A stretch of DNA of 54,484 bases, filler included, from Bipalium vagum (Eukaryota), in the NCBI GenBank assembly GCA_037834085.1. It is 3 parts of 3 records of this genome, joined end to end, with 100 filler letters (N's around TTAATTAATTAA, not from the genome) between each part and the next. Parts side by side here need not be neighbours in the genome. Positions count along the whole stretch, not along the records: positions 16,981 to 34,578 come from JBBMKC010059611.1; 2 more parts are not named here. One strand, given 5' to 3'. The position numbers and the translations under genes were made by a program. The notes under the pieces are model-generated. The model saw nothing but the letters and a program-made list of their open reading frames with translations, searched no databases and had not been told where the DNA came from. The stretch's first letter is position 1; the number at the start of each line of letters is the position of its first letter. Below are positions 19,901 to 51,454 of the stretch, piece by piece.

Positions 19901-20250
19901 ATCTTATATTCTTAAAAAAAAACTTAAATAATTTTCATCTGTATAATTTTATTTTTTATACCACATGGATATTTTGTCATTAATTCTTTGAAAAATATAT
20001 GAAAATTATACCCAGATCCATTATGAAAATAAAATGGACTAAAGAAATTTCTTACAGATTTATCCTTTATATTACAATTATTGTGAGCTGCTCCTCTATA
20101 TTTTCCATTTAAATTATCATGGTCTTTTATCTAAATAAAAATATAAATTCCAAGATTCAAGATTTCAAGATTTCCAAGATTTTTTGATTTATAATTATAT
20201 TTTTCAAATTTCATTCATTACAAAATAATTCATCTCTGGTTTCTGTCATT
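16981..20250. mobile_element. Decayed Polinton/Maverick (adintovirus-like) element, copy 1
   Basis: Minus strand: protein-X-like FLVPIIPILGAIFAGLGAAGGVTGG...GLYFDPYFGKGL (16981-17316); integrase C-terminal ENEGKAVVIEKFN and EKILGRFYENDLQK (17815-18410); PLA2-like HNFTGPGT...PIN...RHVSD (18480-18810); PolB KDHDNLNGKYRGAAHNNCN...FHNGSGYNFH and YDSNSLYSSCM (19640-20250). Plus strand: penton/minor-capsid-like KITRGTYEISDISAYI (about 19520-19575). Confidence 0.85.
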
Positions 20251-20379
20251 TTTATAATAATAAAATGTTTATTAATAAACCCAATTTGGTTTTTTAAAAA
20301 CATTTTTAAAAATTCTAAAAAATTAAAAAATTTAAAACTTGAAAAAAATATTCATGGGGTTTGGGTGTTTAAAAATTAA

Positions 20380-20860
20380 AACAAAATTTAGTTTATTCAA
20401 AATGTCTTTTTAAAGACAAAGATTTTATTTTTCAAGACGACAATGATCCATGCCACAGTGCAAAAAAAAGTTCAAAAATGGTTAGAAGACAATGATATTC
20501 AAAGATTGGGCTGACCTGCGCAGTCACTCTATCTTAATTCAATTGAAAATTTGTAGAAAGTGTTGGCAATATTATTTCTAAAAGGAAATCAAGGAATAAA
20601 AAAGATTTAAGTAAAGTATTATGTTATGCTAGGTATCATTGCAACACAGAACCGGAATTGAAGAAATTAGTAGGTTAAATGCCGAAACCATGTTAATTAA
20701 TAATAAAGAACAAGGGCTGGCCTATTAAATATTAAGAAAAGATGTTATTTTTCTATATTATTGTAAGCATTTGTAATAATAAAATTTGAATTTAAATTGC
20801 ATGTTAAAATAAAGCAAATATGTGTTTTTATTACTTTATCAAACTTTTATCCGGCTCAAA
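20380..20860 (+). mobile_element. Tc1-like (DD34E) transposon 3' remnant
   Basis: FQDDNDPCHSAK, then after a frameshift VQKWLEDNDIQRLG*PAQSLYLNSIENL* (cf. FQQDNDPKH...WPSQSPDLNPIENLW). Confidence 0.85.
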
Positions 20861-22722
20861 TTATTTATTTCTCGTTTAAGTTTTTATTATTAATTTTTGC
20901 TTTGTTCGTTTTTTATTAGTATTAACGTTAAACTTGATATTTATTTTATTGATAACGTTTTGGTTTTGATTTAGAAGTTGTAATAAAGTTTTATTTTAAG
21001 TATTTTGAATTGGTTCTTAAGGGTGCGGATACAGTATTGTGGAGGATGTTTTAAATTCAAAAAATTTGAGAGGAATTGCGAACACAACGAGTTATAAAAA
21101 GTGAGGAGTCATGAGCAGACGAGTACACGTTGCTACGTTTTAGTTGACAAAGATTGAACCCTACAAAGCTGCAAGCACTTGAGATAATCAAATTAGGAAT
21201 ATCAATCATGAACAAAAGTCTCGATGTACTTGTCCCTGCTGTCGTCTTAGATCCGTAATCAGCTGTCACTGCCAAATTTCCCCTTTCCATTTTTTCCGAA
21301 ATCAATAAGTTTTTAAATGAAAGATTGTTACATACACTTCCTTAGATAAGGAGAGTTGGGAAATACTATTATTGTTTCGCAGTTAAATTAGTTAATCAAG
21401 CTACAGCCAGAGTAGTCTGAGTACACCAAGAGATATATGCTTACAACTCTGATAAACATCACCACAAATATAGGTTATCCGGATAGATAAGAATTCATTT
21501 TTCGTCTCCAACTTTGTTGAATCATATCAGTCAAGCTAAATTTATATTTAAATTCCAAAATCTTAACTTGTTCTATAAAGGTTATTTGATTATTTCTTGA
21601 TTAATTTTATTAAATCTATAATGAATATGATTATATTGCAATTAAATTAAATGTTATTATAAATAAACTTGTGAAACTAAAGAACTAAGCATTTGAAAAC
21701 TATTGGGCTGTAAAGCTTCTTAAAACATAACTTAATAATAATAAAAAAAATTAAAGCTCTACAAATAAAATCAAAACAATCCATGGATAATTTTGGAACA
21801 AAATCCAATACGATGTAATTCCTATTGCCTAGAATTCATATAGTGAAAGTATTATAAATATTGATCATGTAACTATTGATGTCACACTTACAAAAACTGT
21901 ATTTTTCGATAAAATAAAACATTCAAAATCGATTGAGTAATAAAATCAATAATTTAAAAATAACATTTTAATTGTGGCATATATTTTAGAGTCATTGGGA
22001 TTCAGAGAGAATTAGAATATTGAGAGCATGCTGATTAAGGTTAACTCCAGTTAAACGTTTTGTAAACCAGATTAGAATTTTACTGACTAATCAATGTTTC
22101 ATCAAGTATTTTTTTATTAAATGTAAAGAAAATTATTGATTAAGAAAGTATAAATGTGAGTTAGGCTTTTTGACTTGGGCAATTCAAACCCTGAAATATT
22201 AAAATTTCCCAGCTAAAGTGACAGTTAGATTTCTAATTATGGGAAAACCAAAGAAAACAAAACATATCACTTATTCAATTATTTATTTTTCCTATACACA
22301 TGATTTTATAATAAAATAAAAATAGATAAATGCCTGAATGAAATAATTCAGTCATTTGTTAACGAAAGTTATAGATGATAAGCTCGATGACATTTTCCGC
22401 TTTTCGTTATACTGTTTTTGTAATAATTTCGAAGTACTACTTCTGTGTGCTATAAATGATTATTAAACTTAGAAATGTCTTAAAAACGGTTTAATCTGTT
22501 AATAAATATTGATTTTAATTATTGCTCACTGATTACCTGAAATAAAGATTTCAATTCATGAGACCAATAAACATCGTAAATAATTTGTAATTAAACATAA
22601 CTCAATATAAACTGCATTTAAATCAGAAATTAATACAAGATAAAATATTAAATCAATATAAAATTGATAATAAACCCATAATCAAATTTTTCTGATTCTC
22701 AAGGGTCAGTAACTTAAGCAAA

Positions 22723-23046
22723 TTAAACAATGACATCCAATAGATTTTTTTGCTTGTTCACGAAAATATTTTCTCCAACACAAGTCAAGGAATAAATATG
22801 ATGTTTGAAATAAACTAAATAATGAGTTATTTGAAATTTTATTTTCTACTAATAATTACTTTCAAAATTATGAAAACCTTTTGTATTTTTTAATAAAACT
22901 TGTAGCCGAAGAGCTATTGAAAAAAATTTTTTGCTTATATCTTCATCATTTTCTAAATCTCCACTGGAATATAAAATACCACCGGAAGAATTTATTATTA
23001 ATGTTCCACAACTGTTCGGAACTTTTAATTGTACAAAAGTTGACAT
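22723..23046 (-). CDS. LAMTOR4: Ragulator complex protein LAMTOR4 (92 aa, 2 exons)
   Basis: Exon 1 23046-22860, 45 nt phase-1 GT-AG intron 22859-22815, exon 2 22814-22723. SSGDLENDE signature, and C-terminus IYFKHHIYSLTCVGENIFVNKQKN parallels [24 protein letters not shown]. Confidence 0.92.
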
Positions 23047-24499
23047 AATTTAAAAATAGTATTCAACATATGATGAATAATAAAACAAATTTTAAAATTA
23101 TAATATTTAACATTATTATTTAATGAAATTTAAATTAATAAAAATTGAATTAATAACATTAAGAGTTTTAAATATTTAAATAAAAATTTTTCTTATCAAT
23201 ATGTAAATTATTTGTTTATTATTATAGAAATGCAATTTAACATAGCATTTCATAATAATTAGAAATTATTAATTGCTTCCGCTTAACATCTAATAACGAT
23301 CAAGAATGATTTGAATTTTTATTTATCACAGTTGGAGTCATATTTAATATTCTTTTAATTGATTTTTAGTTGTTCAGACTTTTACATCAATTTTAGGAAA
23401 ATTACGAAGGTAGGTTTTATAAATTAATTAAATTGAAACTTTATAATATTCATAAAAAGAAGAATTATGTAATTACAATTACAAAGTTAGTGTAAGTAAA
23501 ACTTTTTATTAAGATTTAGAAATTTTGATTATATAAAAATTATTACATTTTCATTATTTTTAATTTCAGTTTAATTTTTAAATATTCTTCATGAAATAAA
23601 AAAAATTACTTTGGTACTCTAAATAATCAATTATGTATGATTTTCTAAAGTGATCTTAATAATAATTCATTGTAATATACTCAAATTTTTGAAAAGATTT
23701 CTTAAGTTTTGAAAATTTTCAAGTTTAAGTTTAGATTGCCTATAAAACGTAGAGATTTTTATAATCCATTATTTAAATTTCATAATTAAAAATAAATTGA
23801 TATATATTTCATTTTTACATTGAAACATTTTCCATATTTTGTATTTTCAAATTTAAGTTAATTTTAATAAATGTAATAAATGAAACTAATAAAAATTAAA
23901 TAAATTTTAGGCTTATACATGATATATATAAATGAGTAATTGAGTATCATATAATATTTTTAACTGAAAGATTTTGATTAATTTTTAGAAATATTTTATA
24001 TATTATAAAACAATTTATATTAATTTATTTTCGTAAAATGAAATATCTAATAGAAAATTAAGACATTAAACATTAAAATACAACATTGTACTATCGTTTG
24101 ACTTTATTAAGATATTGTAATGTTTTCACAAAATGAATACCCTAATCTTTTATTGCAACGTTTATTGCCAATTGAGGTAAAGTCTTCTTATTTTTGAAAA
24201 AGTATTCTCCCCAAGATATTTTTAAATACTATCAAATGAGGTTGTTACTATTATTTTGTACATTTATTTACTTTTAACTTATTTAACGATAAACAAGTAA
24301 AAATCATCAGTTTTGGGAGCTCTTTATATGGAAACTCTCGACAAGTGATTCCCAAAGTAGTCGATGAAGACCTACAAGGGTCTACATGGGTTAAAAAAAT
24401 TGAAGGTCTATGAATTGAAATTGGGAGTCATAAATGGGAAGAATTTTTCAAAAATTGCAAAAATCAGTATAATTGATATCATTTTAATATATAAAAATA

Positions 24500-25498
24500 A
24501 TTATAAAAATATTAATATACTTTTATATTAATTTATTTTATGTTATATTCGTTACGTCAAAGCATTCAATGCTGGAATCGTCTACCAGTCGCTTTGCCAT
24601 CAAAAGAGAATTTAACCTAATAGAATTATCAAGTACGGATATTCGCTCGTTCTTATATATACGCACACAGCAAATCGCACTGATGCTAAGTTTCTTTCTC
24701 GGCAATAAAACTAACGTTATTTTGAGATCATTTGTCTTCGAAAGGAAAATATTTAATAATAATATAAACTGGTAATTAGGCATAGAAAATTAAAGTTAAT
24801 CAATATCATCTACAAGGTGACAGTTAAAACTTTATTAAAACAAAGTCGATCATTTCAGTGTTTCTTGCCAGATTTAAATTGATGAAGCAAAACATCGGGT
24901 GGGGTGCGAATTTTCCAAGTTTCCCAATTTGTCTCAGGTTAACCGCCAATCTATGTCCAGCATTTGAAAGCACTCCATTCAGATTTTGAAATTAGATTTG
25001 AGGATATTTTAACGCTTATAATACCGCAATGGATTATCAATCCATATGATGACAATGAATAAACGGATGTCACATTACAAGAAGAATTGATCGGAATAAG
25101 TAATAACGAAGAACTTAAGGTACAGTTCAGAAACGGATATCAACATTTCTGTCTTCAAAAAGACATACCTTTCACTTATCCCGTATTATGGAAAATCACG
25201 AAAGTTTTTAATTATTTTTCCGTAATGACAAATCTCATCAGAAAAAAGAAACAAACTGGAGACCATTAACGGAGAAGATTTGAGATTGAATCTAACTAAA
25301 TTGAAGCCAAATTTTGATAATTTGTTATTAAATCATCAAGTTCATCCATCCCATTCAACGAGTTTATTTTTTGCTTATTTCTTTTTATGTAACAAATACT
25401 ATAATATTTTAATTAATAATTATATTAAAATGTATTGTTTTTTTGTCTTTTCACATTATAGGAACTTGGCTACTAGTTGAAAGTTTGAGAACCTCTAG
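24500..25498 (+). mobile_element. hAT (Buster/Charlie, SCAND3/ZBED8-like) transposon remnant
   Basis: C-terminal DLRLNLTKLKPNFDNLLLNHQVHPSH, LWKITKVF, and a terminal aagtttgagaacctcta resembling Charlie-type ends. Multiple frameshifts. Confidence 0.75.
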
Positions 25499-26818
25499 AT
25501 CAATTCGGTTGATCTCTCCAAAAAACTTTAGAGTAAATTATAAAAGTTATAATTAGCTCCTAATGAGGCAAAAATCATACACAAACAGACCTTATATGAC
25601 CATCAAACAGTCAAATCATGCCATATTCAGAGCAACTCACTATGTCGATTTAATTAAGAGAATGGCAAACCCTCTAGTCCCGTGTATTAGATCATCTTCT
25701 CAATGAATCACAAAATACACATGAAATGTATTGAAAAAAAATCTAAATATCAATTGTTTTATGAGGAAAATTTCATTAAAACCTGTGATATATTCACCAT
25801 CATTCTCAATAAATTTCTGCCAATGTTCCATCAAAATTTTATATTCAAAATAATATACCACTTAGAATTATTTCTAATTAACATATTTTTTACAATAGAT
25901 TTCTGTATTAAGATTAGCATTTTTTATTTTCTTTGTTAATAATATTTAAACATAAAAATTTTCGGAAGGAAATAATTTCCAACTCTTTCAATTGATTACT
26001 TTGATGAGTTTGAATTGCTTAAACTTCCAGTTAAAATGATAAAGATAATAATTTAGACAGTTAATTTGACATATTAATTAAAGTATGTTTAAAGAGTGAA
26101 AAATATCGTGAAAGATTAAATTGAATAATATTCTTGAACGGGTATTACACAGAATGGAAAGATACAAGTTCCGAAAATCTTGTGATATATAATTCTGTCA
26201 TTATATTGATCACGTCTATGTTCTGAAACTATTGTTGATCGTTAGAGGTTTGGTGGCATTTACATTTTGACAATATTATATAAAGTTATTAAAATAATAT
26301 TTATTTTATTATAATTATTATTTTATTACGTATTATTTGAAAAAAACTGGCTTGTACCGAAGTTATAATAATACTTATTACAAAAATATCCTAATAAACA
26401 AAAGTACCACGTAGTCCTAATTATTCAAAATGCATTATTATATGAAATAATAAGCCTGAAAAATAAAAAATCATTTTTTTATTAACCAATAATTATTTAT
26501 TGACTTTTATTATTGTTTCTAAATTATGTTCTAAAGATTTAAATTTGTGCTATTACATTTAGTAAGACTTTCAAATTAAAATTGTATTTAAGTTTTTCTG
26601 ATATTTAGCATTAATGAACTGATATATTATATAAAGATTTTTCTATATATAATCTTCCTTTTAGGTGTACCAAAGATAAATTAAATCCACTAGTATGTAG
26701 TTCAATAAATACAATGCCTCATTTTCGTTTCTTAACACTTTAAATCTACATCTCAACTTAATTGTGATTATTTTTTTGTGAAAGATTTGGAAAAAAATTC
26801 ATTCCACTCAAGAAAACA

Positions 26819-28504
26819 ATGACCAAACCGGAGAAGATATACGTTCGAAACGGAATAATTGCGTTTCACGGACGAGGAAGACAAATTCTCAAATACCCGA
26901 ACCATTTGCTGATAAATTCGAATAAAATGAAAAATAATAATAGTAGAGACGATTCGTTGATTATAAAATTTTGCTCAAATACATCTATCCGAGGACTCAG
27001 TAGAATAAGTTCAAATCAAAACCTTTCCCTGAAATCGATTTGGATCATTTTTCTATTATCCATGTCGGCCTTGTTGACCGTTGGCAGTTTAAGTTTGACA
27101 TTCGAATTTTTGGAATATAATACGCTGACCAACACTCGCGAAAACCATGAAATGATAGCCACATTCCCAGATATTACTCTTTGCAATCACTATCCTTTCC
27201 ATCTGTCAGCATACAATCTGTGGAAAACCTCCCAAGTGTTGTCGCCGTTTGAGTTTAATACAAAAATCCGAAAAATGATGAAAGATAATTATCTGCAAAA
27301 TTTCTCGACATCGCGACTGCTGTTTACCAGCGACACAATCACGTCGTATTTTGAGACCATTGGACCCAAGAAAGCTCTGATGATTGGCCATGATTCCGAT
27401 CAAATATTATATTGTCTACTGTTGTTGAAGAATTCCAAAATCAAAGTCGGACATCACAATGAGTGCGGAATCAAAATCACGACGGTACCCAACAGTCAAT
27501 TTCTGACGTGTCAACATTTGAGAATCGAAAACAATTATTCCACCAATGCCGTTGCTCTTGGTCTCATAATACACATGGATGACGTTTCCATCAACAACAA
27601 CACGCTAGAATTGGGCCTGGTTCAGGACGTTTTCCGACAAGCACACGGTCTGAGAATCATTCTCCACGAACCGCACACGGTGGCCGACGTCGGTGTCGAT
27701 GGATTCAATATTGAACCCGGAAAATTGACGGAAGTTAAATTCAGCGCAGTTAAATGGAAAAAAATCGATACACCGAAAGAACCGTGTTGGTCAGAGAGCA
27801 TGATCAGCCAGAAAGAAAACCAGTCCGGTTACCATTTCAGATACACTTATGACATTTGCAAAAATGAAGAAATAGGCAAAATGATACATAATAAATGTCA
27901 ATGTTACTCCTCCAAATATCCCATGGTCATCAACACGGATGAAGACAATATTACGTTCTGTTCAAAAATCGATCCGGAAAATTCAGAGAGTGTCATCAAA
28001 CGATTGAACTGTTTGGATCAAGTAGAATCGCAAGAACCGATCAAAGTCGTCATGTCGGAGAACAATTGTATCCGACGGTGCAACTATATGACCTATGAAT
28101 GTCATCTAACAACAGCTCATTGGGTATTGTCCAACTGGAAACTATATTGGCTAATGACGATGAATGACGCTTTGACAGCGCTGGAACAGACCAATCGAAA
28201 GTCGGTAGAGGACAATGTCACTATGATTTTTGACAAATATGTCAATGAATGGAAACGCAATTTATCGGAAGACGTGAAAAACTCGATTGAAACAAAAAAT
28301 GATCTGTTTCTCATTATCAATCGTCAATCGTTTATGACACTTGAAAAGATCGAAGTCTACAGTTTGACGCGCAGTGCGCTGTTGAGTCGTCTCGGTGGGC
28401 TATCATCTATAACTTTGGGAATCACGTTTACAACGATATTTGAACTAGCCGAATGTTTGATAACATTTATACAGGGACGGAAAATGAAAAAATTCAACAA
28501 ATAA
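26819..28504 (+). CDS. DEG/ENaC (amiloride-sensitive sodium channel/pickpocket family) subunit, intronless CDS
   Basis: 561 aa ORF with pre-TM1 FCSNTSIRGL, TM1, FPDITLCN, GLRIILHEP, Cys-rich thumb and TM2 LLSRLGGLSSITLGITFTTIFELAE. The true start may be the downstream MKNNN. Confidence 0.93.
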   Translation: MTKPEKIYVRNGIIAFHGRGRQILKYPNHLLINSNKMKNNNSRDDSLIIKFCSNTSIRGLSRISSNQNLSLKSIWIIFLLSMSALLTVGSLSLTFEFLEYNTLTNTRENHEMIATFPDITLCNHYPFHLSAYNLWKTSQVLSPFEFNTKIRKMMKDNYLQNFSTSRLLFTSDTITSYFETIGPKKALMIGHDSDQILYCLLLLKNSKIKVGHHNECGIKITTVPNSQFLTCQHLRIENNYSTNAVALGLIIHMDDVSINNNTLELGLVQDVFRQAHGLRIILHEPHTVADVGVDGFNIEPGKLTEVKFSAVKWKKIDTPKEPCWSESMISQKENQSGYHFRYTYDICKNEEIGKMIHNKCQCYSSKYPMVINTDEDNITFCSKIDPENSESVIKRLNCLDQVESQEPIKVVMSENNCIRRCNYMTYECHLTTAHWVLSNWKLYWLMTMNDALTALEQTNRKSVEDNVTMIFDKYVNEWKRNLSEDVKNSIETKNDLFLIINRQSFMTLEKIEVYSLTRSALLSRLGGLSSITLGITFTTIFELAECLITFIQGRKMKKFNK

Positions 28505-28622
28505 GACACAAGAAAAAATATTTTTCATCAATACAAACATCAATAGTGATACAAATTTAAATCGATTGATTGTTGATTTAAATATAGTGTTTTTAATTTC
28601 AATAAATATCTCTTACAAATTT

Positions 28623-29404
28623 TCATTTCCGTCTTAAGTAAGTCGGATTCATTTCGTCGTAGTAATTGTTGGGCACCTGATATCTGTTAGGTGGAGGAGC
28701 CGGTTGTGAAACCATGAACTTTAACCTTTGATAGCTTATCATCATTTTTAATACAAAAATACCAACAACAGCCTAAAAATGTTACAAAATTTTTACTTTT
28801 AGTCTTTTTGTTACCTGGAAAACAATAAATACGGCCTCAATTATGTGCAATGCTCTTTCAAAAGGCGATATGATCATTTTTTCACTAAAGAGAAAAAAGA
28901 AGATTGCTGGGAGTTGAACCATAATGGTTAATAGCCAAAAACCTGCAAATTCCGGAATCTGGACAATTAATGTTATCAGAATAAGTAGATTTAGTTTAAC
29001 CTTTTCTGCCAAATTACCAGCATAACCAACATACAATCTTGATACTTCTAATATGGAAAATAATATAAACAGAGCAACGTTAATGACTGGATATATTTCT
29101 TTCATTTTTGTAAACTGATGATGATTAAAATGCAGTATATATTTACATAGTCAATACTTCTTGTTCTAATGTTAGGCACATTCCAATAAACCACAGAGGA
29201 AAATAAAATGCATTAAAATAAAGTGATATCTGTAAAGGTAAATTTGAATGATATTCAAAACCTGAAATAGAGACAATTAAATAATTTTTTAGACTTGACT
29301 AAACCAGTTTTATTTTTCTGTAATCTTTGTTTTTCCAGATCAGCGTCTGATACAGGAAAAATGTGATCAAATATTGAATTCATATATGAAGGTTTTTCAT
29401 TCAT
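28623..29404 (-). CDS. TMEM17: Transmembrane protein 17 (ciliary transition zone; 203 aa, 5 exons)
   Basis: Exons 29404-29305, 29261-29158, 29114-29001, 28958-28815, 28772-28623 with GT-AG introns of 43, 43, 42 and 42 nt. Motifs SNLPLQISLYFN, EVSRLYVGYAGNLAEKIPEFAGFWLL and FERA. Confidence 0.93.
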
Positions 29405-30169
29405 TATGGTAACTATGTGAAATAAGAAAGTTGCTATTCGAAATATTATTTTAGTTAATTTAAACAAATGATTAATTGATTCGTTAAAACTTAAATTTAA
29501 TAGTTTATAAAAATGATGCACAATTAATATTACTATATTTTTATTTTAAACATATATCTTTTTAATATTCAACAAATAAATTTTTTATTAAAAGATTAAA
29601 TGGAATTATAAATGGAATAAATCACATTTGATATTAACTATTGGATAAGATTTGATTTAGATGGTTCTTCTGGTAACTAGTCTAGTTTGAGATTAATGGG
29701 CCTAGGAGCCAAACTTCAGTTTTATTAGTAGATTTTTTTATATTTTTACTTATTTATATTTCTTTTGTGTACTCGTTTTTAACTTAATATTAATATCATT
29801 ATACCCCTTGTTTATTGACTAAAGTTAATCTGTATAACTTCTCTGGAAAGTTCGCAGGTTTCGATCTGAGTTTTGAATCAAGGAATTTTAATTTTTTAAT
29901 TTGATCCATAATTATTTATTGTCCTTATTTATAAATTATTTAATATTCCTTCTAATAAATTATTATTTATGAAGGGAATATGTTTACTTAATTGACGATT
30001 AATATTATTTAATAGAAATAAAACAAGAAGTTTTAATAAATTAACAAGAACTTGTGATATTTTTTGATATTAGTTAATGGTTTTTAAATAAATAAAACTT
30101 GCTGGTAATTGTTTAATATTATAAAAATTATTTAATAAAAATTATTTCGAGTTTATTTCTTCAGGACAC

Positions 30170-30725
30170 AGTAGATCTATATGGATCTTTGTCAGATGAG
30201 CTCTTCACTTGTGAAAAAAAAGCCTTCTTCGCGCAGTTTTGTCGACATCGGGGAATATTAAAGTTCTAAATAGATCTCAGGATTCCTGTAACATGGTACT
30301 GCCAAATCTTTGCCGAGTATTCAGCATCTGCTGCACATTCCTTGATGAGTGGACCAATTTTTGACCTCCGGACACCGATTTTCTTCAATACATCAACTGT
30401 TTTGGCGGTACTGTTCCTAGGGACTCAATTGTGCATGTATGCAGTACAACTTTATAATCAGGCTTCAACACTTGAAGTCGATTACGAAGATCTGCGTAAT
30501 TAGCTAAATTATCTTCATCTGAATTCTTGAAATTTTTCAGGATATCTTTAGGACATTTGATATCAATGAGAAAAATCATTTTATTCTCAATATGTGATCA
30601 AAAGATCAACACGTTCATTGCAATCTTTCAAGAGCTCACATTTCTTGTCCATGACTACAATAATGTCAAGACAACAACGTGCATCAGCAATTTTTTTTAA
30701 ACAAGCATTGTGACGCTCTGTATTG
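30170..30725 (-). mobile_element. Non-LTR retrotransposon 3' fragment with restriction-like endonuclease (R2/NeSL-type)
   Basis: RHNA..., RVDLLI...IFLIDIKCP...NYADL...IESLG pattern of REL domains. Disrupted. Confidence 0.65.
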
Positions 30726-31029
30726 TTTTAATATTGATGTGATTTTTAGTCAAGAGTCTATATGTAATTTCCTAATGTAATCTTGACTTAATTTTGTTTA
30801 ATGTAACTAAATAATCTTGGCAATCATTTGTTTCAGATCATTGAAAGCAATGTAAATATTATTTTTCAATTTATAGTATTAAATTAGCACAATAAAAACC
30901 ATAATAATAATTAATAAAATAAGTATAGTATTAAATTATTTAAGAAATGATATGTGGTTAGACTATTATTATTAAATTTATTAAATATATTTTAGGCCAA
31001 AAAAATAGTAACACATATTAACCATTTTA

Positions 31030-31450
31030 ATACCGATATACATGATTTCTTCATGAATTCCTTCATTTTCTTACTTTTGTGCACCGAAGCATTATCCTCC
31101 TGGAACCATCAATTTTTTCCATAATTTTATTTTATTATGGCACAGCACTTTCTGACAAAAGCTTAATGTATCCATCTGAATTCATGGTTCTTTTCACGAC
31201 TTTGAAAGACAGCAGACAGGCATTGTCGTCATCCATACAATAACGCTTCTACCTTTGCACTGCCTCTTAATGCGATAAGTTGGAGATGATTTGTGTACAT
31301 AGGATTTCCAATCATCTGAACCATTCAAAGGAAATCGCTGCTCGTCAGAAAAAATTGTGAAATCCCAATCATGATTAAACGAAATACATGATCTTATGCA
31401 TTGCAAACGTACTTTCTTTTGATTTATGAATTTGGGATGACATCTTTTTG
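31030..31450 (-). mobile_element. Tc3-like transposase remnant
   Basis: WDFTIFSDEQRFPLNGSD...GRSVIVW and WFQEDNASVH motifs. Confidence 0.8.
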
Positions 31451-32189
31451 TATATGAAACAAATTTACAATTTTTTTTTCTTACAAATATATTGTGTATT
31501 ATTGAATTAGAATCTATTATACTTTTTAATTAAAAATTATTTAAACTTAAAAAATTATTTAATAAAATTTAAACTTCCTGTGTCAAAAAATTTGACTTTT
31601 AAATAAATTCAAAATTTACTAAATATGACTATATTATATAAACAAGTATATTTCATTTAAAAATTTTAAGATATTTTAAATAAACATTTTATATCCATAC
31701 AAAATAAATGATAAAATTATTTTGATTAAGCATCGTATATAAAAATATAAGGTGTGTAATATAAGGTTATTTATTAATTATAAAGCTCATATTAAATTAC
31801 ATTTTGTGTTTGTTATATTTAGACACAGAAACTTTGCAGAGAATAGTTCAGAAGCTTAATGATAAACAGGACTTTAGAAGAAAAAGTTTTGTCTATAAAC
31901 CATTTTATCCTGCCGGAAAGTTAAGTCGAATATCAAATTATCCAGGTCCGTTGTGAAAGTTAAAATTATTCTTTTAGCCGAATGTTTTCTGACAGCATAA
32001 ATGTTAATTTTGTTTTTTTGTTTATTAATTTAAACAAAACGTTATTTTTGATTATTTAATATTTGCACTGAAGTCTGATTTACTGATAACAAATAACCAT
32101 TCTACTGAAACCATGAAAATCAATTCATATAATTTATTATTTTATTAAGATTTATAATATAATTATTTAATATAAAATAATATCTTTTA

Positions 32190-32202
32190 ATTTATTATTA
32201 AT

Positions 32203-32254
<52 letters not shown>

Positions 32255-32255
32255 T
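32190..32255. repeat. (AAT)n-(ATT)n inverted microsatellite
   Basis: An aat run directly followed by an att run, which is self-complementary. Confidence 0.85.
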
Positions 32256-32904
32256 GTCATTCATATTGAAACCGTTTTTTAGGTTTAAAGTTAATTAACA
32301 TCTTTCTTTTGATCTTCTTGTTTCTTTTATTTCTTATCTGTAATTGCTTTAAAATTTACAATAAAATGTTACATTAATAAAATAAAAGTTAATTTTAAAA
32401 TGAAAAGCAAACAAGAAATAAAACATCCATATAAATTCTCACCGATTCCGTAGACGATAGGTCCAAAGAGTCGTTTGCTAAGAAAAGCTCTAGCAGCACA
32501 CTCGTTAGCTCCTGTCGCATAATTGAAGGTATAATCATAATATTCATCGATAACATTTTCTTGTAAAAGTTTTCTTCCAACGCAATAATTTAAAATTCTG
32601 CAGGAATTTAGTGGAAATCCTCTGCGGATTCAAATTCCTTTTATACTATCCTGGCCAATAATCAAATCAGTCGTAGACCAGGAATTTTAATGGGGAATGT
32701 TAATTCCATTTTAGATTATTAATTCCAAATTCAAGGTCCGTCCTTGCGGATCCTGATCTAATTATGGAAATTTGGCTTCACCGTTGTCAAGATCAGATCC
32801 TTTTTGGAAAATAAAGAATTACTATTTTATTATTAATATTATTATAATTAACGTTTTGTCTTTTTAATTATTATTATTATTATTACATTTCTGACTCTTT
32901 AGCG

Positions 32905-34075
32905 GTAACTGGGTCGTAATTTTACTGGACCTGGAACAAATATTGATAAACGTTTATGTTAGCAGCTTTGAACTATGAAAAAGTTATTGAAAATCTAAAT
33001 ATCCGTCCAATTCTTAAACATGATTCAATTCCAATAAATTGAATAGATCAAAGAGCAATGAAATATGATGTAAAATATATATCAACAGATTTAAAAGATC
33101 GTCATGTTGCATATGTCGACATAATTCATGAAATGAATAATATTCAAAATCCAACTACAAGAGAAAAACTTGAAAGAGCAAGAATAAAATTGATTATGAA
33201 GAGCTAGGTTGCTTAGGACTTCCAAGAGCAGCAAAATCAATTGCAACAACAAATATTTATGAAAATTCAAAAATTCCTATTTCCGAAAAACGAGAAATTT
33301 TAGCAAATGAACTTCATAAAGAATTCAGGAAAAAACTTTTGTTCCAAGAGAAAAAGATTATAAAATAATTCTTACAATTATTGATTTATATACTCATTTT
33401 GCTGTTGTTGTTCCTTAAAAAAAATAAAACAGGTCAATCAATTACAGATGCTTTTGAAAAAATATTTAGTACTTGTCTTAGAAAAAAAGAAAAAATTTGG
33501 GTTGATATAGGTACAGAATTTTATAATAAAACTTTTGAAGAACTTTTTGATGAAAACGAAATAAATATTTATTCAACGGAGAATGAGGGAAAAGCAGTTG
33601 TTATAGAAAGATAGAATAAAAATGTTAATGTTCCAAAAACTTGCAAAACAATTAAATAGAAAATGGTTACATCTTTTACCAAATTAAATTATTTTTACAA
33701 TAATAAAATTCATAGCTCAATTGGAATGACTCCTAATGAAGCATATAAAAATCCCGAAAATTTAAACACAAAAGAATAAAAAAGAAGTCAATATTTTACC
33801 TTCTGAAATTTTAAAATCGAAAAAAAAATTTAATATTGGAGATCGTGTGGGAATTTTTAAATATAAAAATAAATTTTAAAAAGGATACACAGTAAAATGG
33901 ACAAATGAAATTGTTATTATTAATGAAATTTATTTTACAAATCCAATTGTCAAAGGAATAACTGATTTAAAGGTAAAAAAATATTAGAAAGATTTTATGA
34001 AAATGAGCTTCAACGAAGTAGTTTTCAAAGGATCATTTTTCAATGTTAAACTTTAACTATACCTTTTTAATTTCA
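32905..34075 (+). mobile_element. Decayed Polinton/adintovirus-like element, copy 2 (PLA2-like + integrase)
   Basis: RNFTGPGTNIDKR (GPGT 32927-32938), IDQRAMKYDVKY...RHVA, then LANELHK (33300-33320), KIWVDIGTEFYN, ENEGKAVVIER, HSSIGMTP, FNIGDRV...KGYT..W, FYENELQ. Collinear with copy 1. Confidence 0.88.
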
Positions 34076-34237
34076 AAATGGAACAATAAACTTCAAAATG
34101 AGAATAATATTGAGAATTGAACGGCACATTTATTATTGATAACAAAAATTATTGATAACATTATTTATTTGAAATGATTGCTTTATATTTGTTTGTATAT
34201 TGGTATTTTTGTTTACAAATTTTGAAAATTTTCAAAA

Positions 34238-34578
34238 ATGAAAAAAGCGGAAAAGGAAATTTAAAAAATGCAATTGATTGTCGTTGTTAATAACAAAGGA
34301 GACTGGAGAGAACTCGCAGGCCAGCTTAATGCTCCACAGTCAACGGCATATAGGTGGGTATCAGAGAGAGTATCCTTAGACAAACGAGGAGGGAAGAGAT
34401 TTAAAAAATCTCGCAAAATCACGAAGATTAAGCATTGTGAACCCGTTGTTTTGGTCATTGACAATGCACCTTGCCACAATGGAATTGAAGAGATTTTACA
34501 AGAAGAGGAATTTCGTGAAAACAAAATACTTAGACTGGCACCATATAGTCCGATGTTCAATCCCATCGAAAATGTTTG
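34238..34578 (+). mobile_element. IS630/Tc1-like transposase, internally deleted, truncated by gap
   Basis: HTH (DWRELAGQLNAPQSTAYRW) joined directly to VLVIDNAPCH...LAPYSPMFNPIENV, with 35 residues between D and E. Confidence 0.85.
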
Positions 34579-36982: not shown

Positions 36983-37041
36983 TCAAAGTTATTTATCGAG
37001 AAACCACATAAAAATAAAGTTTTAGAAAATTTCGTTTATTG

Positions 37042-38559
37042 ATGATTTGGATCACATTTTGCGTAATTATTCTAGCTGTTTTCTTTAGGAACATCATAGG
37101 AAGACGATCATCAATTCCTAAAGGTTATAAACAGCTCCCGTTAGAAAGAGGTATTCCAATCGTCGGTATCATCTTTCAAATAAAAAGATCAATGACGTTC
37201 TATCTGAGAGAGCTTGGCAAAAGGCACGGACCCCTGTTTGCTATCAGGTTGGGAATGAGGGATATTGTGGTGCTGAACACTTACGATGTTATCAAAAAAG
37301 CTTTTAAGGATAAATCAGACGTTTTCTCAGGCCGATTTGAGACTGAGTATAAGAAAGAAGTGACAAAGCATTCTGGATTTGTTTATCATGATGGAGAGGT
37401 GTGGAGTAGGCACAAAGCTTTTGCAAAGACTGTCTTTCGAGATTTTGGATTTGGTAAATCCAATTCGGAAGAAATTGTCCAAAATGAATGTATTTCTATG
37501 ATAGAGGACCTTACAAAATTGGACGGCAAGGTTTTGAATATTTGCGATTTCTTTTCCGTTTACATTGCGAACGTGATTTCTCATTTCATATTGGGAAAAA
37601 GAATGAAAAGGGAAAGTAAAGAACTGAATTGTTTTCGCCAAATCTTACAAAATAATATCAAATCTCACGAATGGTCAGATTATCTTAGCTTGATCTTTCC
37701 TTTTCTAAATACCAATTCCATATTCGTTAAGCTCTCCTACCATTTTTCTGTGTCAAGATCTCTACATGAAAAGAATTTTGAAATCTTTCGACGAGAGATT
37801 GATGAACATCAGAAAGTTCTAAGCCCAGGATCTGGAGAACAAGACTTTATAGACAAATACTTAATAAAAAGAAATGAAATGATCAGAGAATATGAAGAAG
37901 ATAAAGGTTTTACCGATGATAATCTAATCGTTATGATTTATGAATTCAGTGGCGCAGGATTTGATACTTTGACAACTTTTGTTGAATGGGGCTGTATGTT
38001 CATGTGCAAGCATCCAGATATCCAAAAAGAGGTCTACAATGAGATAGCTCAAAACATTGGATGTGAGAGACTGATAAACTTCAATGACAGAACCAGCCTA
38101 AACTATACTCAGGCCGTCATTGATGAAATATTACGAATGAGCTCCATTACGCCTTTTGCGGTACAGCATCGAACTTTAACTGATACATCTGTGGATGGAT
38201 TTTTTATCAAGAAAGATTCGGTTATTTTACCAAATATATTTAATTGTCATCACGACCCGGAGACTTGGGATAATCCAATGCAATTCAATCCAAACAGATT
38301 TTTAGCAAAAGAAGCTAATGGAAAAATGAAATACTCTCCTCGGAAGGAGCTGATTCCCTTCAGCATAGGCAAAAGAGAATGTCCTGGTATAAATTTATCT
38401 CGAATTGAGTGCTTTGTTTTCTTTGCAAACCTTATTCAAAAGTTTGAAATAAAGTCTCCAGAAGAAATAAGTGAAAAGAAGTATGAAGACGGATATGAAG
38501 ATGGATATATCATTCGACCCTGTCTTATGAAGGAGTTCATTTTTAAAAGACGATCTTGA
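37042..38559 (+). CDS. Cytochrome P450 (CYP2-clan-like), intronless; copy A
   Basis: N-terminal TM anchor, I-helix AGFDT, K-helix EILR, FNPNRF and heme motif PFSIGKRECPG. ATG at 37042 (the ORF track starts at TTG 37039). Confidence 0.95.
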   Translation: MIWITFCVIILAVFFRNIIGRRSSIPKGYKQLPLERGIPIVGIIFQIKRSMTFYLRELGKRHGPLFAIRLGMRDIVVLNTYDVIKKAFKDKSDVFSGRFETEYKKEVTKHSGFVYHDGEVWSRHKAFAKTVFRDFGFGKSNSEEIVQNECISMIEDLTKLDGKVLNICDFFSVYIANVISHFILGKRMKRESKELNCFRQILQNNIKSHEWSDYLSLIFPFLNTNSIFVKLSYHFSVSRSLHEKNFEIFRREIDEHQKVLSPGSGEQDFIDKYLIKRNEMIREYEEDKGFTDDNLIVMIYEFSGAGFDTLTTFVEWGCMFMCKHPDIQKEVYNEIAQNIGCERLINFNDRTSLNYTQAVIDEILRMSSITPFAVQHRTLTDTSVDGFFIKKDSVILPNIFNCHHDPETWDNPMQFNPNRFLAKEANGKMKYSPRKELIPFSIGKRECPGINLSRIECFVFFANLIQKFEIKSPEEISEKKYEDGYEDGYIIRPCLMKEFIFKRRS

Positions 38560-42049: not shown

Positions 42050-43540
42050 ATGAGTTTGATTATACTTTGCTTAGCTATTATTGTTGTTTATGTATGTAAG
42101 ACACGTTGCAACTCGTTCTTCCATTCCAAGGGGTTACAAAAAGCTCCCATTGGAAAAAGGTGTTCCAATTTTTGGTATCATCTTTCAGATAAAAAGATCA
42201 CTGATTTTCTATTTAAAAGAGCTTGGAAAAAAGCACGGGCCTCTTTTTGTTATCAGGCCTGCAATGAGGGATATCGCAATATTGAATAATTACGATGTCA
42301 TAAAAAATATATATATAGGACAAGTCAAACATTTTTTCAGGTAGATTTCAGCCCGAGTATAGAAAGCAGGAAACAACGCATTCTGGGTTTATTTTCCATG
42401 AGCTAGAGATGTGGACTAGGCACAAAGCTTTAGTGAAGTCTCTTTTGAGATTTGGGACTTGATAAATCAAAATCAGAAGAGTTTGTCCAAAATGAATATA
42501 TTCATATAATACAAGATCTTACAAAACTAGAAGGACAGATTGTCCTCTGTTTGCTATTTCTTTTCCATTTACATTGCAAATGTCATTTCATATTTTTTAA
42601 TGGACAAAAGAATGAAAAAAGATGGAAAGAAACTGAACTGTATGCGTGAAATCATGACAGGTAATGTCAAAACCCAATAATGATCGGATTATCTTAGCCT
42701 AATCTTTCCGTTTTTCAATACCAATTCTCTGTTCATCAAACCCTCTAACCGTCTCATTCTTTCAAGATATTTATTTGAAAAGATTTTCGAAATATTTCAT
42801 TTCGAGATTGATAGCATCAAAAATTACTAAGCCCAGATTCAGGTGGTGAAGACTTTATTGACAAGTATTTATTAAGAAGGAACGAAATGATCAGAGAAAA
42901 TGGAGATACAGATGCAAAAGGATTTACCGAAAATAATCTGAGTATTATGTTATATGAATTCAATACTGTAGAATTCGATACTTTAACTGCCTTTATGGAA
43001 TGGGCCTGCATATTCATGTCCATGCATAAAGATATTCAAAAGGAAGTCCACAGGGAGATACATAAATATATCGGATTTGAGAGAATGCTAAATTTCAATG
43101 ACAAAGCCAATCTAAAATATACTCAGTCCGTCATTGATGTAATATTAAGAATGAGCTCAATTTTGCCTTTTACCCTTCTCCATCGAACCTTAGGAGGAAA
43201 GATTCGATTGTCTATCAAATTTGTTAACTGTCATTACGACCCTGAGGTTGGAGATAATCCAATGCAATTCAATCCAAAAAGATTTTTAACAATGGATGCT
43301 AATATTGAGAGATAAATATACTTCTCGTACAGAGCTCATTCCCTTTGGGATTGGAAAAAGATAATGTCCTGAAATAAATTTAGGCCGAATGAAAAGTTTT
43401 AAATTCTTCGCCAACCTTTTGCATAAATTCTAAATAACGTCTTCTGAATAAATAAGTGAGAAGAAATATGAAGACGCTCTTTTTGAGGATGATTGCGTCA
43501 CTCGACCCTGCTCCATAGATAAGTTTTTTTCTCAAAATTC
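42050..43540 (+). pseudogene. Cytochrome P450 pseudogene; copy B
   Basis: Collinear with neighbouring CYPs but with several frameshifts, a deletion after HRTL, ExxR mutated (DVILR) and a stop inside the heme motif (PFGIGKR*CP). Confidence 0.93.
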
Positions 43541-43689: not shown

Positions 43690-46005
43690 TGCATGGCAAT
43701 AGATATATTAAATTAAACAATAAATAACAAATGAATATTTTGATAAATTCTTATGAACCGTCTTAATATGAATTTGAAGAAAATATTAAGATTTTTAACA
43801 ACTCTTTTTTTCTAATTATTTAGGCTTTTATTTTAAAGAAGGATATTTAAAATATTATGATTCTAATAATTTATATTCTAGTTGTATGACAAAAGGTTTA
43901 CAAAAATGTTTAAAATATTATATAACAGCACTGCTTTTCCAGATCCAAAATGACCAATAATTAACATTCTAAAAATTTATGGAGAATTATAAAGATTTTT
44001 AAATATTACAGAATTATTATAAAGGAAATCACATTTTAAAAAATTTTTTTAGTATTTTAAATAAAATTTGTTTGATGTACTTGGTTATCAAGCCTTATTG
44101 AGAGCAGGTAACATCTGTTTCAAATGTTGAGTAGAATTTTATTCTTCTCAATTAAAATTTACTAATTCTTTGTTATTATCGGATATCTTAATTTTTTCTC
44201 AATAATATTTTTCGTTGTTAAAGAATAATAATTTGGGAATTTTAATTTTTAATGATTTTATATCCTCTTGTAACACTATTCGAAAGAAAGCCAAAAATAA
44301 TACTTCTTCATTTACTATCATAAAATCCTTCTTCAACAATATTGCAATCAATCATGATTTTACTTATCTTTGAAATTTTCAGTGGTGATGATTCATAATT
44401 TTCGTTTGTATAAGATTTTTTTTCTAATCCTAACATTTCATCAATTAAAATTTCTAGAAAGGAAATACAGCCTTTAGAAATTTTCATTACACAGTTTGTA
44501 GAAATTGCATTATTATTATTACTCTTCTGGGATTAATGATTCTTATGCTTTTATACTTTTTTTTATAATTTTATATTCTACAATAAGTTGAAAATTGTTG
44601 AAATAAAAAATTTAATATTTTTGTAGAGAAGCTTCCATTTTCAACATAATTTATCAGAATCTAATTTATATTTAACTTAGATTTTTTTAAAATAATCATC
44701 AGTGATACTTTTTAGCTTTTTCAATTTTTTAAAAATTAAATGATTAAGATTATCATGACCTGTTTTTTAGCACCTGTATATTTTCTTAAAGTTATAAATT
44801 TATCAAGTACATATTTCGGTTATTAAATTTTATATCTTTGTTCATCTCGTTTTATTTAATTATTTTTATTTAATTCGGTTTCTATACTTGTAATATATTT
44901 TCATTTTTGTGATCCTTTGGCAAGTTTTATTATTTGAAAATAATTACTCAAATCTTTTACTTTAAATGGTTTGTCTCTCTTTGAATTAAATTTTCCTTCT
45001 ATTAATAATTTAAAATCTTCAATTAATTCAAATAATCTTTCATCATCTGGTTTTGGATCATTTGGATTACTATATTTTAAAAATGCTTTTTTTTATTAAT
45101 GAAAAATGGGATTTTATTTATTATTAATGTGTTATCTATAATTGATGGACTAATGATTGATGTTAACTTAGAAGTATTTAAATCAAAAATTACGGATGGT
45201 GAAATAGGTTGTATAATTAAATCTATTGAAGATTTTTCATTTTTTAATATTTTCTTTATTAATTTTTATATCATGAGACTTTATTTTTATTAATTTTTTT
45301 TATATTAAAAATTATTAAATGATCACCAATATTATATTTTGGTTTAGAAGTTAAAGAATAATTTTGTTTATGATTTTTTTTCAATCTTTAAATTTTGAGG
45401 ATTGACTAAAAGCCTTGTAAATTTAATTGGATTAGCTTAAGACCTTGAAAGCTTTCCTGGATTCTCGGAAGGCTCTGTCAGCTTTTTTGGATCTTAGATG
45501 CTTTTTCAGGAATAATTTCAATTTTTTTATGAGTTTTATCAATCGAAGACTTAAGACCACGATGTGGTTGATTATGATAAATATTTATTAAATTTGGTAA
45601 TCCGTTTAACCATGTATCTTACCATCTTCTATAATTTTTTAAACATGATATTCTTCAAAGTTTGATTAAACCTTTCTAATACAACAGCTTTCTTTTATTC
45701 TCTGTTGACTAAGTTACTATTTCATTATTATCACCAAAATCTTCATATGTCCTATTATAAAATTACCTTTATCAACCAAATTCATTGGTTTTCTTTGATA
45801 GTCTTCAAATATTTCATCAAAAGCATTTGTTATAGATTTTTTTAAAGGAATAGCAAAAACATATCTTGTCTATAAATCAATAACTGCTAATATTATTTTA
45901 TAATCTCTTTCCACTCTGATAAATGTCAAATCTGCAATCGAAATATCATTTTTATTAAAAACCTTAACTTTAAGATATTGTTTAGGTTTTATAAAGTTCA
46001 TTTAA
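43690..46005. mobile_element. Decayed Polinton/adintovirus-like element, copy 3
   Basis: Plus strand: PolB motif YDSNNLYSSCM (about 43855-43890), homologous to 19690-19740. Minus strand: packaging-ATPase-like FRMLIIGHFGSGKAVLLY (Walker A 43935-43955); integrase KVKVFNKNDI..ADL...ILAVIDL*TRYVFAIPLK and ENKRKAVVLERFN (45550-46005). ggtcatgataatctt segment shared with about 19226. Confidence 0.8.
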
Positions 46006-46604
46006 TATTTTTTAACATTTTTCAGGATGAATTATATTTTTAATAATATTCTTATATTTTGAAACTATTTCTTTACAAAAAGAAATGAAATCATATCTAT
46101 ATCCTATATAAAAATGAAATAGAATGAGAAATATTTAACATGATTTATTATTTAAATTGCATTTATTGTGAGAAGCGCCTCCTTTATTTCCGTTTAAATG
46201 ATAATGACATCCAACGTTTTTCCGATATTTTTATTCAATTAATTTATGCAATAAATAAATTTATGTGAATTATTAAAATTGATTTTATCTTGTTTTGTCA
46301 TTATAGTTTCTTTATTTTTATAATTTATTATATTGGTTAATTTATTTTTCTAATTTAATTAAAAATTATTAGTTATATTAATTAAAAATAAAGGTAAAGA
46401 TAATATATCGCAGATATGTTTACAAAGAAAAGTAATAGGTTTTATAATAAATATACAATATAATATAATAATATAATATAATATAAATATAATAAATACA
46501 AATCGTACATAATTTAAATAAGAATGAAAAAAACTAAGATTTCTTTCTCTTAGAAATAAAATTGCTTTAAGACTATGTGAGAAGAAATAAATTAACCTAT
46601 CTTA

Positions 46605-48113
46605 TCAAGATCGTCTTTTAAAAAAGAACGTTTTCATTGGACAGGGTCGAATAATGTAACCATCCTCATAAAGTGCGTCTTCATATTCTTTCTCACTTAT
46701 TTCTTTGGGATACGTTATTGCGAATTTTTGGATAAGGTTTGCGAAGAATATAAAACTCTCAATTCGGGCCAAATTTCTTCCTGGACATTCTCTGTTCCCA
46801 ATAGCAAAGGGAATCAGTTCCTTTCGAGGAGTATATTTCATTTCACCATTCGGATCCATTGTTAAAAATCTCTTTGGATTGAACTGCATTGGATCGTTCC
46901 AAACTTCTGGGTCGTAATGACAATTAAATATGTTTGGTAAAACAACCGAGTCCTGTCTAATAAAATATCCATTTATACAAGTGTCAGCTAAAGTTCGACG
47001 AGAAAGACTTAGCGGGGTTATTGAGCTCATTCTTAACATTTCATCGATGACAGACTGAGTATAGTGAAGGTTGTCTTTGTCATTCATGACTATCATTCTG
47101 TTAGATCCCACATTTTCAACAATCTCTTTGAAGACTTTCAGTTGAATATCCTGATGCTTGGACATGAACATGCAAATCCATTCCATAAAAGTTGTGAAGG
47201 TATCAAATCCTGCTGCATTCAGTTCATAAATCATAATGAGTAAATTATTGTCTGTAAATACCCCAACCTCATCATATTCTCTCATCATTTCTTTCTGTTT
47301 TATTAAATACCTGTCAATGAAGTCTTCTCCTCCAGAACACTGGCTGAGTACCCTGTCATGCTCATCAACCTCGTGCTGAAATATTTCAAAAACCTTTGCA
47401 AAGAAATATCTTGAAAAAGCTACGCGATTGGAGAACCAGATGAACAGCGAATTGGTATTGAGAAACGGAAAGATTAGGCTAAGATAATCCGACCATTCTT
47501 GAGTTTTAATATTGCTTGTCATGAATTGTCGCAAAAAGTTCAGTTCCTTTCCATCTCTTTTCATTTGTTTGCCCATTACAAAATAGGCAATGTAGAGGGA
47601 AAAGAAATCGCAAACATTCACGACTTCTCCTTCTAATTTTGTAAGATTTTCGATCATATGAATACATTCATTTTGGACAACCTCCTCAGATTTAGATTTA
47701 CCAAGTCCCAAATCTCGAAAGACAATCTTTACCAAACCTCTGAGCATACTATGCGTCTCCCCATCATGAAAAACAAATCCAGAATTCCGTGTTGCTTCCT
47801 TCTTATATTCAGGTTCAAATCGTCCTGAAAAAATTTTTGACTTGTCCTGTAAAGCTTTTTTGATGACATCGTAATTATTCAATACCACAATATCCCTCAT
47901 TCCCAGCCTGATAGCAAACAGAGGCCCGTGCTTTTTTCCAAGCTCTTTTAAATAGAAAATCAGTGATCTTTTGATCTGAAAAATGATACCAAGAATTGGA
48001 ACACCTTTTTCCAATGGGAGCTTTTTGTAACCCTTTGGAAATGACGATCGACTTTTAATGAGGATCGTACATAGTACAACGGCAATAACCAAGAAAAATA
48101 TAATCAAAATCAT
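46605..48113 (-). CDS. Cytochrome P450 (CYP2-clan-like), intronless; copy C
   Basis: 502 aa with AGFDT, EMLR, FNPKRF and PFAIGNRECPG. Confidence 0.95.
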   Translation of the reverse strand: MILIIFFLVIAVVLCTILIKSRSSFPKGYKKLPLEKGVPILGIIFQIKRSLIFYLKELGKKHGPLFAIRLGMRDIVVLNNYDVIKKALQDKSKIFSGRFEPEYKKEATRNSGFVFHDGETHSMLRGLVKIVFRDLGLGKSKSEEVVQNECIHMIENLTKLEGEVVNVCDFFSLYIAYFVMGKQMKRDGKELNFLRQFMTSNIKTQEWSDYLSLIFPFLNTNSLFIWFSNRVAFSRYFFAKVFEIFQHEVDEHDRVLSQCSGGEDFIDRYLIKQKEMMREYDEVGVFTDNNLLIMIYELNAAGFDTFTTFMEWICMFMSKHQDIQLKVFKEIVENVGSNRMIVMNDKDNLHYTQSVIDEMLRMSSITPLSLSRRTLADTCINGYFIRQDSVVLPNIFNCHYDPEVWNDPMQFNPKRFLTMDPNGEMKYTPRKELIPFAIGNRECPGRNLARIESFIFFANLIQKFAITYPKEISEKEYEDALYEDGYIIRPCPMKTFFFKRRS

Positions 48114-48170
48114 GAATTATCCGAAGGTTTCTGGAGAATTGTTTTGCCTTACTCTTATATCGCTTGAAAA

Positions 48171-51259: not shown

Positions 51260-51454
51260 TGAACTGGTGACATTTTGTGAACAGACAGAATTCAAGTTTA
51301 TAATATCATTCAGAAAAGTAATCAAACTGTTTTCATCATAAGAATAGACATACACAAATAGATTCCATACATCCTCTAAACTTCATAAACCAATCTTCAT
51401 TTATATTTGAAGCTGAGGCTACGGTAATTTTTCAAAGGTTAACAAATTTTACTC

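Follow-up and report, generated by a model that had tools for sequence, protein, structure and literature searches.

A Polinton/adintovirus family in the genome of Bipalium vagum encodes a predicted phospholipase A2 (PLA2) domain and a DDE integrase in one continuous open reading frame, and we regard it as virtually certain that this fusion is native to the family. The single frame had been proposed in an initial annotation of the DNA and is found in natural genomic copies and in public homologues. As far as the literature was searched the fused architecture is undescribed, yet it is widespread in Polintons. The analysed stretch of 54,484 nucleotides (the window) consists of three joined parts. 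Two copies of the gene, copies 1 and 2, are both located in the second part (16981-34578). The following features of the element were identified:

32915-33204 (+): copy 2, broken PLA2 domain of the parvovirus type (identified by tblastn using the natural ORF P0001)
33213-33299 (+): copy 2, PLA2-integrase linker of 29 residues, without stop or Met, in frame with the integrase and out of frame with PLA2
33300-34026 (+): copy 2, rve (DDE) integrase with C-terminal beta domain and without chromodomain, broken by a deletion, frameshifts and stops
18451-18831 (-): copy 1, PLA2 domain plus the linker's first half; an internal stretch is out of frame, and the catalytic His is substituted
18390-18452 (-): copy 1, remaining half of the linker with the equivalent of the LAxELH motif, in another frame than the PLA2 part
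17817-18334 (-): copy 1, broken C-terminal portion of the integrase, with a deletion of much of the catalytic core
45502-45995 (-): third fragment of the same family, integrase only (tblastn E 2e-27), in a different part of the stretch than copies 1 and 2
17023-17459 (-): remnant of a protein-X-like core protein gene (tblastn with the natural ORF of locus L018)
19975-20130 (-): upstream of copy 1, piece of a protein-primed DNA polymerase of the Polinton type (E 1e-10 to 3e-11 in tblastn, compared with polymerases from IMG/VR loci)

Copies 1 and 2 are fragments of about 1.0-1.1 kb, and neither of them shows the fusion by itself. Comparison of the window copies with the natural ORF yielded E-values down to 1e-82, which rules out a chance match. 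The PLA2 motif NFTGPGT of copy 2 was found at 32918-32938 (+), and the linker is, as had been described, free of stops and in frame with LANELHK (33300-33320). The PLA2 segment ahead of this linker is not in frame with it; a frameshift at about 33205-33212, where the anchors are spaced by 134 nt versus the modal 141, separates them. Further lesions in the PLA2 part of copy 2 are an earlier frameshift, a TGA at 33040-33042 and a substitution of the catalytic His. The 5' end of the gene is absent, and the integrase has lost the stretch with the first catalytic Asp. DNA homology of copy 2 to other copies starts near 32900-32960 and ends near 34030, and Pfam scans of its short open pieces gave no match.

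For copy 1 the same domain order, with a read-through and a frameshift of its own, had been described. The end of its PLA2 domain does run into the linker (18516-18454), but the frame shifts mid-linker, and about 95 residues of the integrase are missing. The residues LANEK of this copy sit in the middle of the linker and do not represent the LAxELH motif, the equivalent of which is located in the other frame (18452-18390). The lesions of both copies are indeed at different places, as the idea of two complementing copies assumed, but the single ORF itself is shown by other genomic copies. Since copies 1 and 2 are only 70-76% identical in DNA, they represent independent insertions; an inverted duplication joining them was rejected because of this low identity.

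Other genes were also found in the window. A fragment of a Tc1/mariner-type transposase (DDE_3, E 1.3e-5, under the cut-off) lies right after copy 2 at 34265-34576 (+), and a DEG/ENaC channel gene (ASC, PF00858) with a single ORF of 578 residues is located between copies 1 and 2 at 26768-28504 (+); the presence of this channel gene points to an animal host. The third part contains full-length single-ORF cytochrome P450 genes at 37018-38559 (+), 46605-48116 (-) and 51443-52975 (+), clustered with a cytochrome P450 fragment at 42815-43315 (+). Polinton fragments at 45502-46221 adjoin one of these clustered genes.

To characterize the gene in the whole genome, loci were collected by a DNA search, which scored 40 of 1764 candidates, and by a protein search, which scored 86 of 7000; 50 loci were fetched, 47 of them distinct. 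A stop-free stretch of 496 residues (L012/L021) contains matches to both PF08398 (27.3 bits, cut-off 23.9) and rve PF00665 (43.2 bits, cut-off 32.6), so that the N-terminal part has a PLA2 match above the Pfam cut-off. No Chromo match was found in the fused ORF, which stops after the beta domain. The order within the gene is Met, a Cys/His zinc-finger-like motif, a low-complexity spacer, Gly-Gly, PLA2, Gly-x-Gly, a variable linker and the DDE integrase. Of the 19 loci that could be read at the zinc-finger-like start, 10 have this start in frame (4 stop-free) and 9 have it shifted. L021 belongs to the latter, with its zinc-finger start out of frame, and is incomplete as a gene.

To read the frame of the junction, the spacing from an anchor in the last PLA2 helix to the LAxELH motif was used, which was possible for 43 of the 47 loci. 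Of these junctions 36 are in frame, 31 of them stop-free, and 7 are shifted with scattered spacings. The protein search is biased towards in-frame copies; of the 18 readable junctions among the 20 DNA-selected loci, 13 were in frame. The in-frame spacings amount to 117, 126, 138, 141, 144 and 171 nt, and the frame has therefore been kept through length changes. Over 26 copies, dN/dS was 0.50 for the linker and 0.26 for the PLA2 helix, both values including neutral decay. Natural copies do not have a stop followed by a new ATG between the domains. The initial annotation had described the linker as free of Met, which holds for the linker itself, although most copies of this genome have an in-frame Met just upstream of it in the last PLA2 helix (LIMK). 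A programmed frameshift at the junction of the window family was rejected because most copies are in frame and the shifted ones show scattered spacings. Few PLA2-only proteins (28 matches) are close relatives of this family, and the closest ones end at unrelated places.

The genome of B. vagum contains thousands of candidate Polinton fragments, and the copies of the gene are fragmentary and located on short contigs. At L009:1268-1846 (-) PLA2 runs in frame into a small membrane-protein gene and not into an integrase, with an internal deletion as the probable cause. Locus L097 (G000 C98779) harbors two tandem PLA2 fragments, and a deletion joins the integrase to the ATPase gene.

The element was assigned to the Polintons/adintoviruses with a full virion module because of the gene set of locus L096 and a major capsid protein that matches PF21738 (E 1.6e-16 in L039). 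On L096 a single contig carries, on one strand, the PLA2-integrase gene followed by genes for X-like, protease, fibre-like, small membrane, penton, ATPase and major capsid proteins. Double jelly-roll capsid, penton, packaging ATPase and adenain protease are thus all present together with the PLA2-integrase gene, the protease being assigned by tblastn to IMG/VR ORFs and not by Pfam. Other Polinton/Maverick hallmarks are the D-D-E rve integrase, which is broken in the window copies, and the protein-primed DNA polymerase B, of which fragments lie beside the gene in the window and near it in 5 of 47 loci. An X-like gene is found downstream in 16 of 47 loci; the X-like protein of the L048 copy matched Adeno_PX below the cut-off (E 0.0098), and Gly-Gly and Gly-x-Gly motifs also flank segments of this protein. 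For the capsid, 122 candidates in the genome were scored, with 123 matches. A stand-alone small transposon consisting of the PLA2-integrase gene alone was rejected, since the neighbouring genes are Polinton virion genes. In the available text of Buck et al. (bioRxiv 2024.03.25.586562) adintoviruses are defined by an integrase with a C-terminal chromodomain and an OTU domain at the PolB N-terminus; the window family differs from this definition by an integrase without the C-terminal chromodomain.

Fused homologues are also present in public data. Among the best 120 of 422 public matches, limited to lengths of 272-868, 94 contain the PLA2 motif ahead of the integrase motif; one fused homologue, P0077, is named as a coral protein. 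According to a table count, just 26 of the 150 best representatives at 50% identity span both domains and 124 do not, and therefore most Polinton integrases are unfused. For an alignment 70 fusions were chosen among the public matches. The catalytic His of PLA2 is present in 69 of 70 sequences and Asp, Tyr and the second Asp in all 70; in the G-x-G of the calcium loop the first Gly is found in 70 and the second in 53. The PF08398 match and the conservation of this catalytic set in the relatives identify the domain as a predicted parvovirus-type phospholipase. The integrase D-D-E is present in 70 of 70 fusions. A Gly terminates the PLA2 domain in all 70 and is followed by x-G in 57 and by G in 7, the residue P4 of this motif being mostly Lys (34/70). 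The linker behind the Gly comprises 2-50 residues in the 59 measurable fusions, and a Met just before the linker is found in 22 of 70.

In a quick IQ-TREE analysis of the integrase core (126 rows), which was midpoint-rooted and gives no direction of change, the window family falls into an 81-row clade with an SH-aLRT of 100 that is chromodomain-free by motif label; some of these regex labels are wrong, as P0030 and P0046 are actually fused and several chromodomains were missed. Some fusions do carry a chromodomain. A structure prediction, as suggested at the outset, was made with AlphaFold and yielded two separate domains for the fused protein (mean pLDDT 84, pTM 0.48); the last PLA2 helix ends in the Gly motif. 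Independent folding, as predicted by this model, fits co-packaging better than a coupled enzyme; the initial annotation had proposed that the fused protein couples membrane penetration to integration. The integrase model matched chains of the foamy virus intasome (E 5e-16) and also the MELD virus integrase. For the PLA2 domain alone the pTM was 0.82; the top match was an entomopoxvirus PLA2-like protein (E 1.8e-4), with densovirus VP1s in the next rows. The similarity of the model to rice PLA2 is weak (Z 6.5, rmsd 3.8, 91 aligned), and the VIA score of the PLA2 domain is in the unspecific range of the tool.

A different link between both domains was found in a sister lineage, which falls outside the 81-row clade. 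The relatives of P0071 are mostly PLA2-only proteins, and in 112 of the best 120 x-Lys-Asn follows within 12 residues of the Gly motif. Using an alignment of 18 PLA2-only proteins, 28 metagenome loci were fetched; the patterns were N-terminal and away from the junction, and due to this query the lineage was chosen for being split. The junction was readable in 17 of 28 loci by either of two anchor methods. In 16 of the 17 the integrase is located in the -1 frame and in 1 in frame, and 13 of the 16 are related copies from one sample. An in-phase A AAA AAC or A AAA AAA heptamer was present in 15 of the 16 loci, compared with a background of about 0.04 per ten in-phase places, the copies being related. 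None of the nine -1 loci that reach the first catalytic Asp of the integrase contains a Met before it. Folds of the 50 nt downstream, calculated without pseudoknots for 14 metagenome loci and L053, were no more stable than shuffles (z -1.86 to +0.56). Judged by its sequence, this arrangement is a gag-pol-like frameshift signature, and the sister lineage quite likely uses -1 ribosomal frameshifting.

The -1 state could alternatively stem from slippage during transcription, from splicing, from initiation at a non-AUG codon or from a single frameshift inherited within a dead subfamily. The unremarkable downstream folds, the long A-runs in some members (L085, L086 and the P0103 cluster) and the origin of most loci from one sample point in this direction. 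On the other hand, the commonest slippery site has just six A's before the C, and the heptamer stays in phase while the length of the upstream tail varies. In most cases a stop closely precedes the heptamer in the -1 frame, and this frame continues with preserved integrase sequence immediately after the heptamer. The same state was seen in four samples and in PLA2-only protein clusters with as many as 1439 members. We consider a non-ribosomal origin unlikely.

Frame changes were observed in other lineages as well. A-runs are mutation hotspots, which weighs against a programmed shift in the sister lineage, and outside this lineage they occur in all three frames. L053 has a -1 shift at an A-run together with a Met of its own, and the two related proteins P0318 and P0319 appear, judging from their tails, to be in a +1 state; both observations likewise speak against it. 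L052 was rejected as a second -1 case; it is of the in-frame type with a small lesion. Scans of viral contigs with P0071 and with the heptamer pattern gave no match. For the P0103 cluster (P0171-P0184) 15 of 36 members are listed, 9 of which are PLA2-only (173 residues, ending after a Lys run), 5 fused and 1 in the third frame; this cluster may be a second lineage that switches frame at an A-run, or contain assembly errors there. Several of the integrase-only proteins P0097-P0121 (300-330 residues) have an initial Met at a position that is Leu in fused relatives; this suggests TTG starts set by the gene caller that hide a frameshift link.

The integrase is not only joined to PLA2. In L055 (2740-4251), P0341, P0358 and P0379 an adenain-like protease is fused in frame to its N-terminus, with Gly-x-Gly at each join, and the integrase is thus attached to two different virion proteins. 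P0378 shows the reverse order, with integrase, chromodomain and PLA2 in one protein and Gly-x-Gly before PLA2; this is a single protein and may be a chance read-through.

We infer virion association and cleavage of the fused protein; both fit the place of the gene among virion genes and the conserved Gly motif at the junction. The PLA2-integrase precursor is probably packaged in the virion, and cleavage at the PLA2-integrase junction seems moderately probable. Taken as a whole, the explanation we favour on balance is a precursor that likely becomes packaged in the particle, where the cysteine protease of the element likely cleaves it. The precursor would enter the capsid by way of its N-terminal part, and the Gly motifs flanking PLA2 would serve as cut sites for the protease. 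Escape of the particle from the endosome would be assisted by PLA2, a role also ascribed to the PLA2 of parvovirus VP1, and integration of the incoming DNA would fall to the released integrase. PLA2 and integrase would be made 1:1 in the window family, whereas the sister lineage would produce an excess of PLA2 and, through frameshifting, a minor amount of PLA2-integrase, following the Gag/Gag-Pol logic. The adenovirus protease cleaves at (M/L/I)-x-G-G or (M/L/I)-x-G-x-G. The Gly pattern at the junction is found in 64 of 70 fusions, but P4 is mostly Lys instead of the hydrophobic residue of this rule. Two observations also speak for caution: the Gly motif also simply terminates the PLA2 fold where the PLA2 protein is unfused, which is a counterpoint to cleavage, and the in-frame Met before the linker could start a separate integrase, which is a counterpoint to a polyprotein.

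The misfit of P4 would also agree with a fusion that stays uncut, in which PLA2 tethers the integrase to the incoming genome or membrane through entry and replaces the lost chromodomain in locating the integrase. The large clade of the window family without chromodomain (by regex labels) is in line with this reading, and linkers as short as 2 residues past the Gly leave little room for a protease. The wide range of linker lengths up to 50 residues and the low pTM of the fused model argue against a fixed packing of the domains, the Gly motif recurs at the joins of the unrelated protease-integrase fusions, and fusions with a chromodomain exist, so that we regard a permanent tether as improbable. 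Still less probable is mere genome economy, where neighbouring late genes were merged by stop loss, the integrase is made from an internal Met or promoter and the long product has no role. The Met in the last PLA2 helix of most copies of this genome and the large majority of representatives that do not span both domains, most Polinton integrases being alone, would be explained in this way. Such a Met is present in less than a third of the aligned fusions, the sister lineage has kept its slippery link without a Met before the catalytic Asp, and the frame was maintained across many length changes, all of which contradict a long product without role.

In retroviruses the integrase is encoded behind a virion protein as part of Gag-Pol, either in frame or via a -1 shift at X XXY YYZ, is packaged and is later released by proteolysis. 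The integrase described here is likewise located behind a virion protein, in frame in the window family and in the -1 frame at a heptamer in the sister lineage. The differences are that the element is a DNA virus with a jelly-roll capsid, that the carrier is a predicted phospholipase and not Gag, that no stimulatory structure was found in the folds and that packaging and proteolytic release of the integrase are predictions here. It is an even call whether Polintons have converged on the Gag-Pol solution, which would mean that the integrase is hitched to PLA2 or to the maturation protease, in frame or by a -1 shift that sets the PLA2:integrase ratio, and is freed by the capsid protease at Gly-x-Gly.

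Related components are known from other elements. The PLA2X protein of Alpha (Mayetiola-class) adintoviruses, as described in the available text of Starrett et al. 2021 (PMC8502044), consists of PLA2 followed by a protein-X-like C-terminal domain. It resembles the protein described here in its parvovirus-VP1-type PLA2, in the Polinton virion module and in the entry role proposed there. In PLA2X elements, as far as this text goes, the integrase is a separate gene with a chromodomain, whereas here PLA2 runs into a chromodomain-free integrase and the X-like gene is a separate downstream ORF, which does not correspond to the PLA2X class. CAP and INT of the Spodoptera frugiperda Maverick (PMC5803895, available part) contain, as here, an rve integrase and a PLA2 whose catalytic residues are conserved, but are separate ORFs, and INT has a chromodomain. 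Polinton lipases have been proposed as virion-packed entry factors (PMC4642659, PMC8502044, in the available portions). The available text on the Mavirus virophage, a Polinton-related DNA virus, reports packaging of its rve integrase inside the capsid and describes no PLA2 fusion of this integrase (PMC6428243, PMC6723459). In adintoviruses -1 slippery sites were predicted in Penton and Hexon-Adenain only, according to the available text of PMC11071296, a version of bioRxiv 2024.03.25.586562; these are virion genes as well, but neither PLA2 nor integrase. Within the Polinton/adintovirus literature searched, the accessible text contained no PLA2-integrase fusion and no integrase frameshift, and thus no earlier description of the kind that would have made the proposed fusion known. 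This applies to the available parts of PMC11131425, PMC3671162, PMC10748475, PMC8363768, PMC4028283, PMC8097293 and bioRxiv 2026.06.19.733378, and equally to PMC5803895, PMC6428243, PMC6723459, PMC4642659 and the text of PMC8502044, whose sequence files could hold fused annotations.

The case for particle formation by animal Polintons is based mostly on gene content. A link of the integrase to virion proteins by a polyprotein or a frameshift is sequence evidence that the integrase travels in the particle. In addition, many Polinton integrases that are annotated from an internal or a TTG start may be annotated too short.
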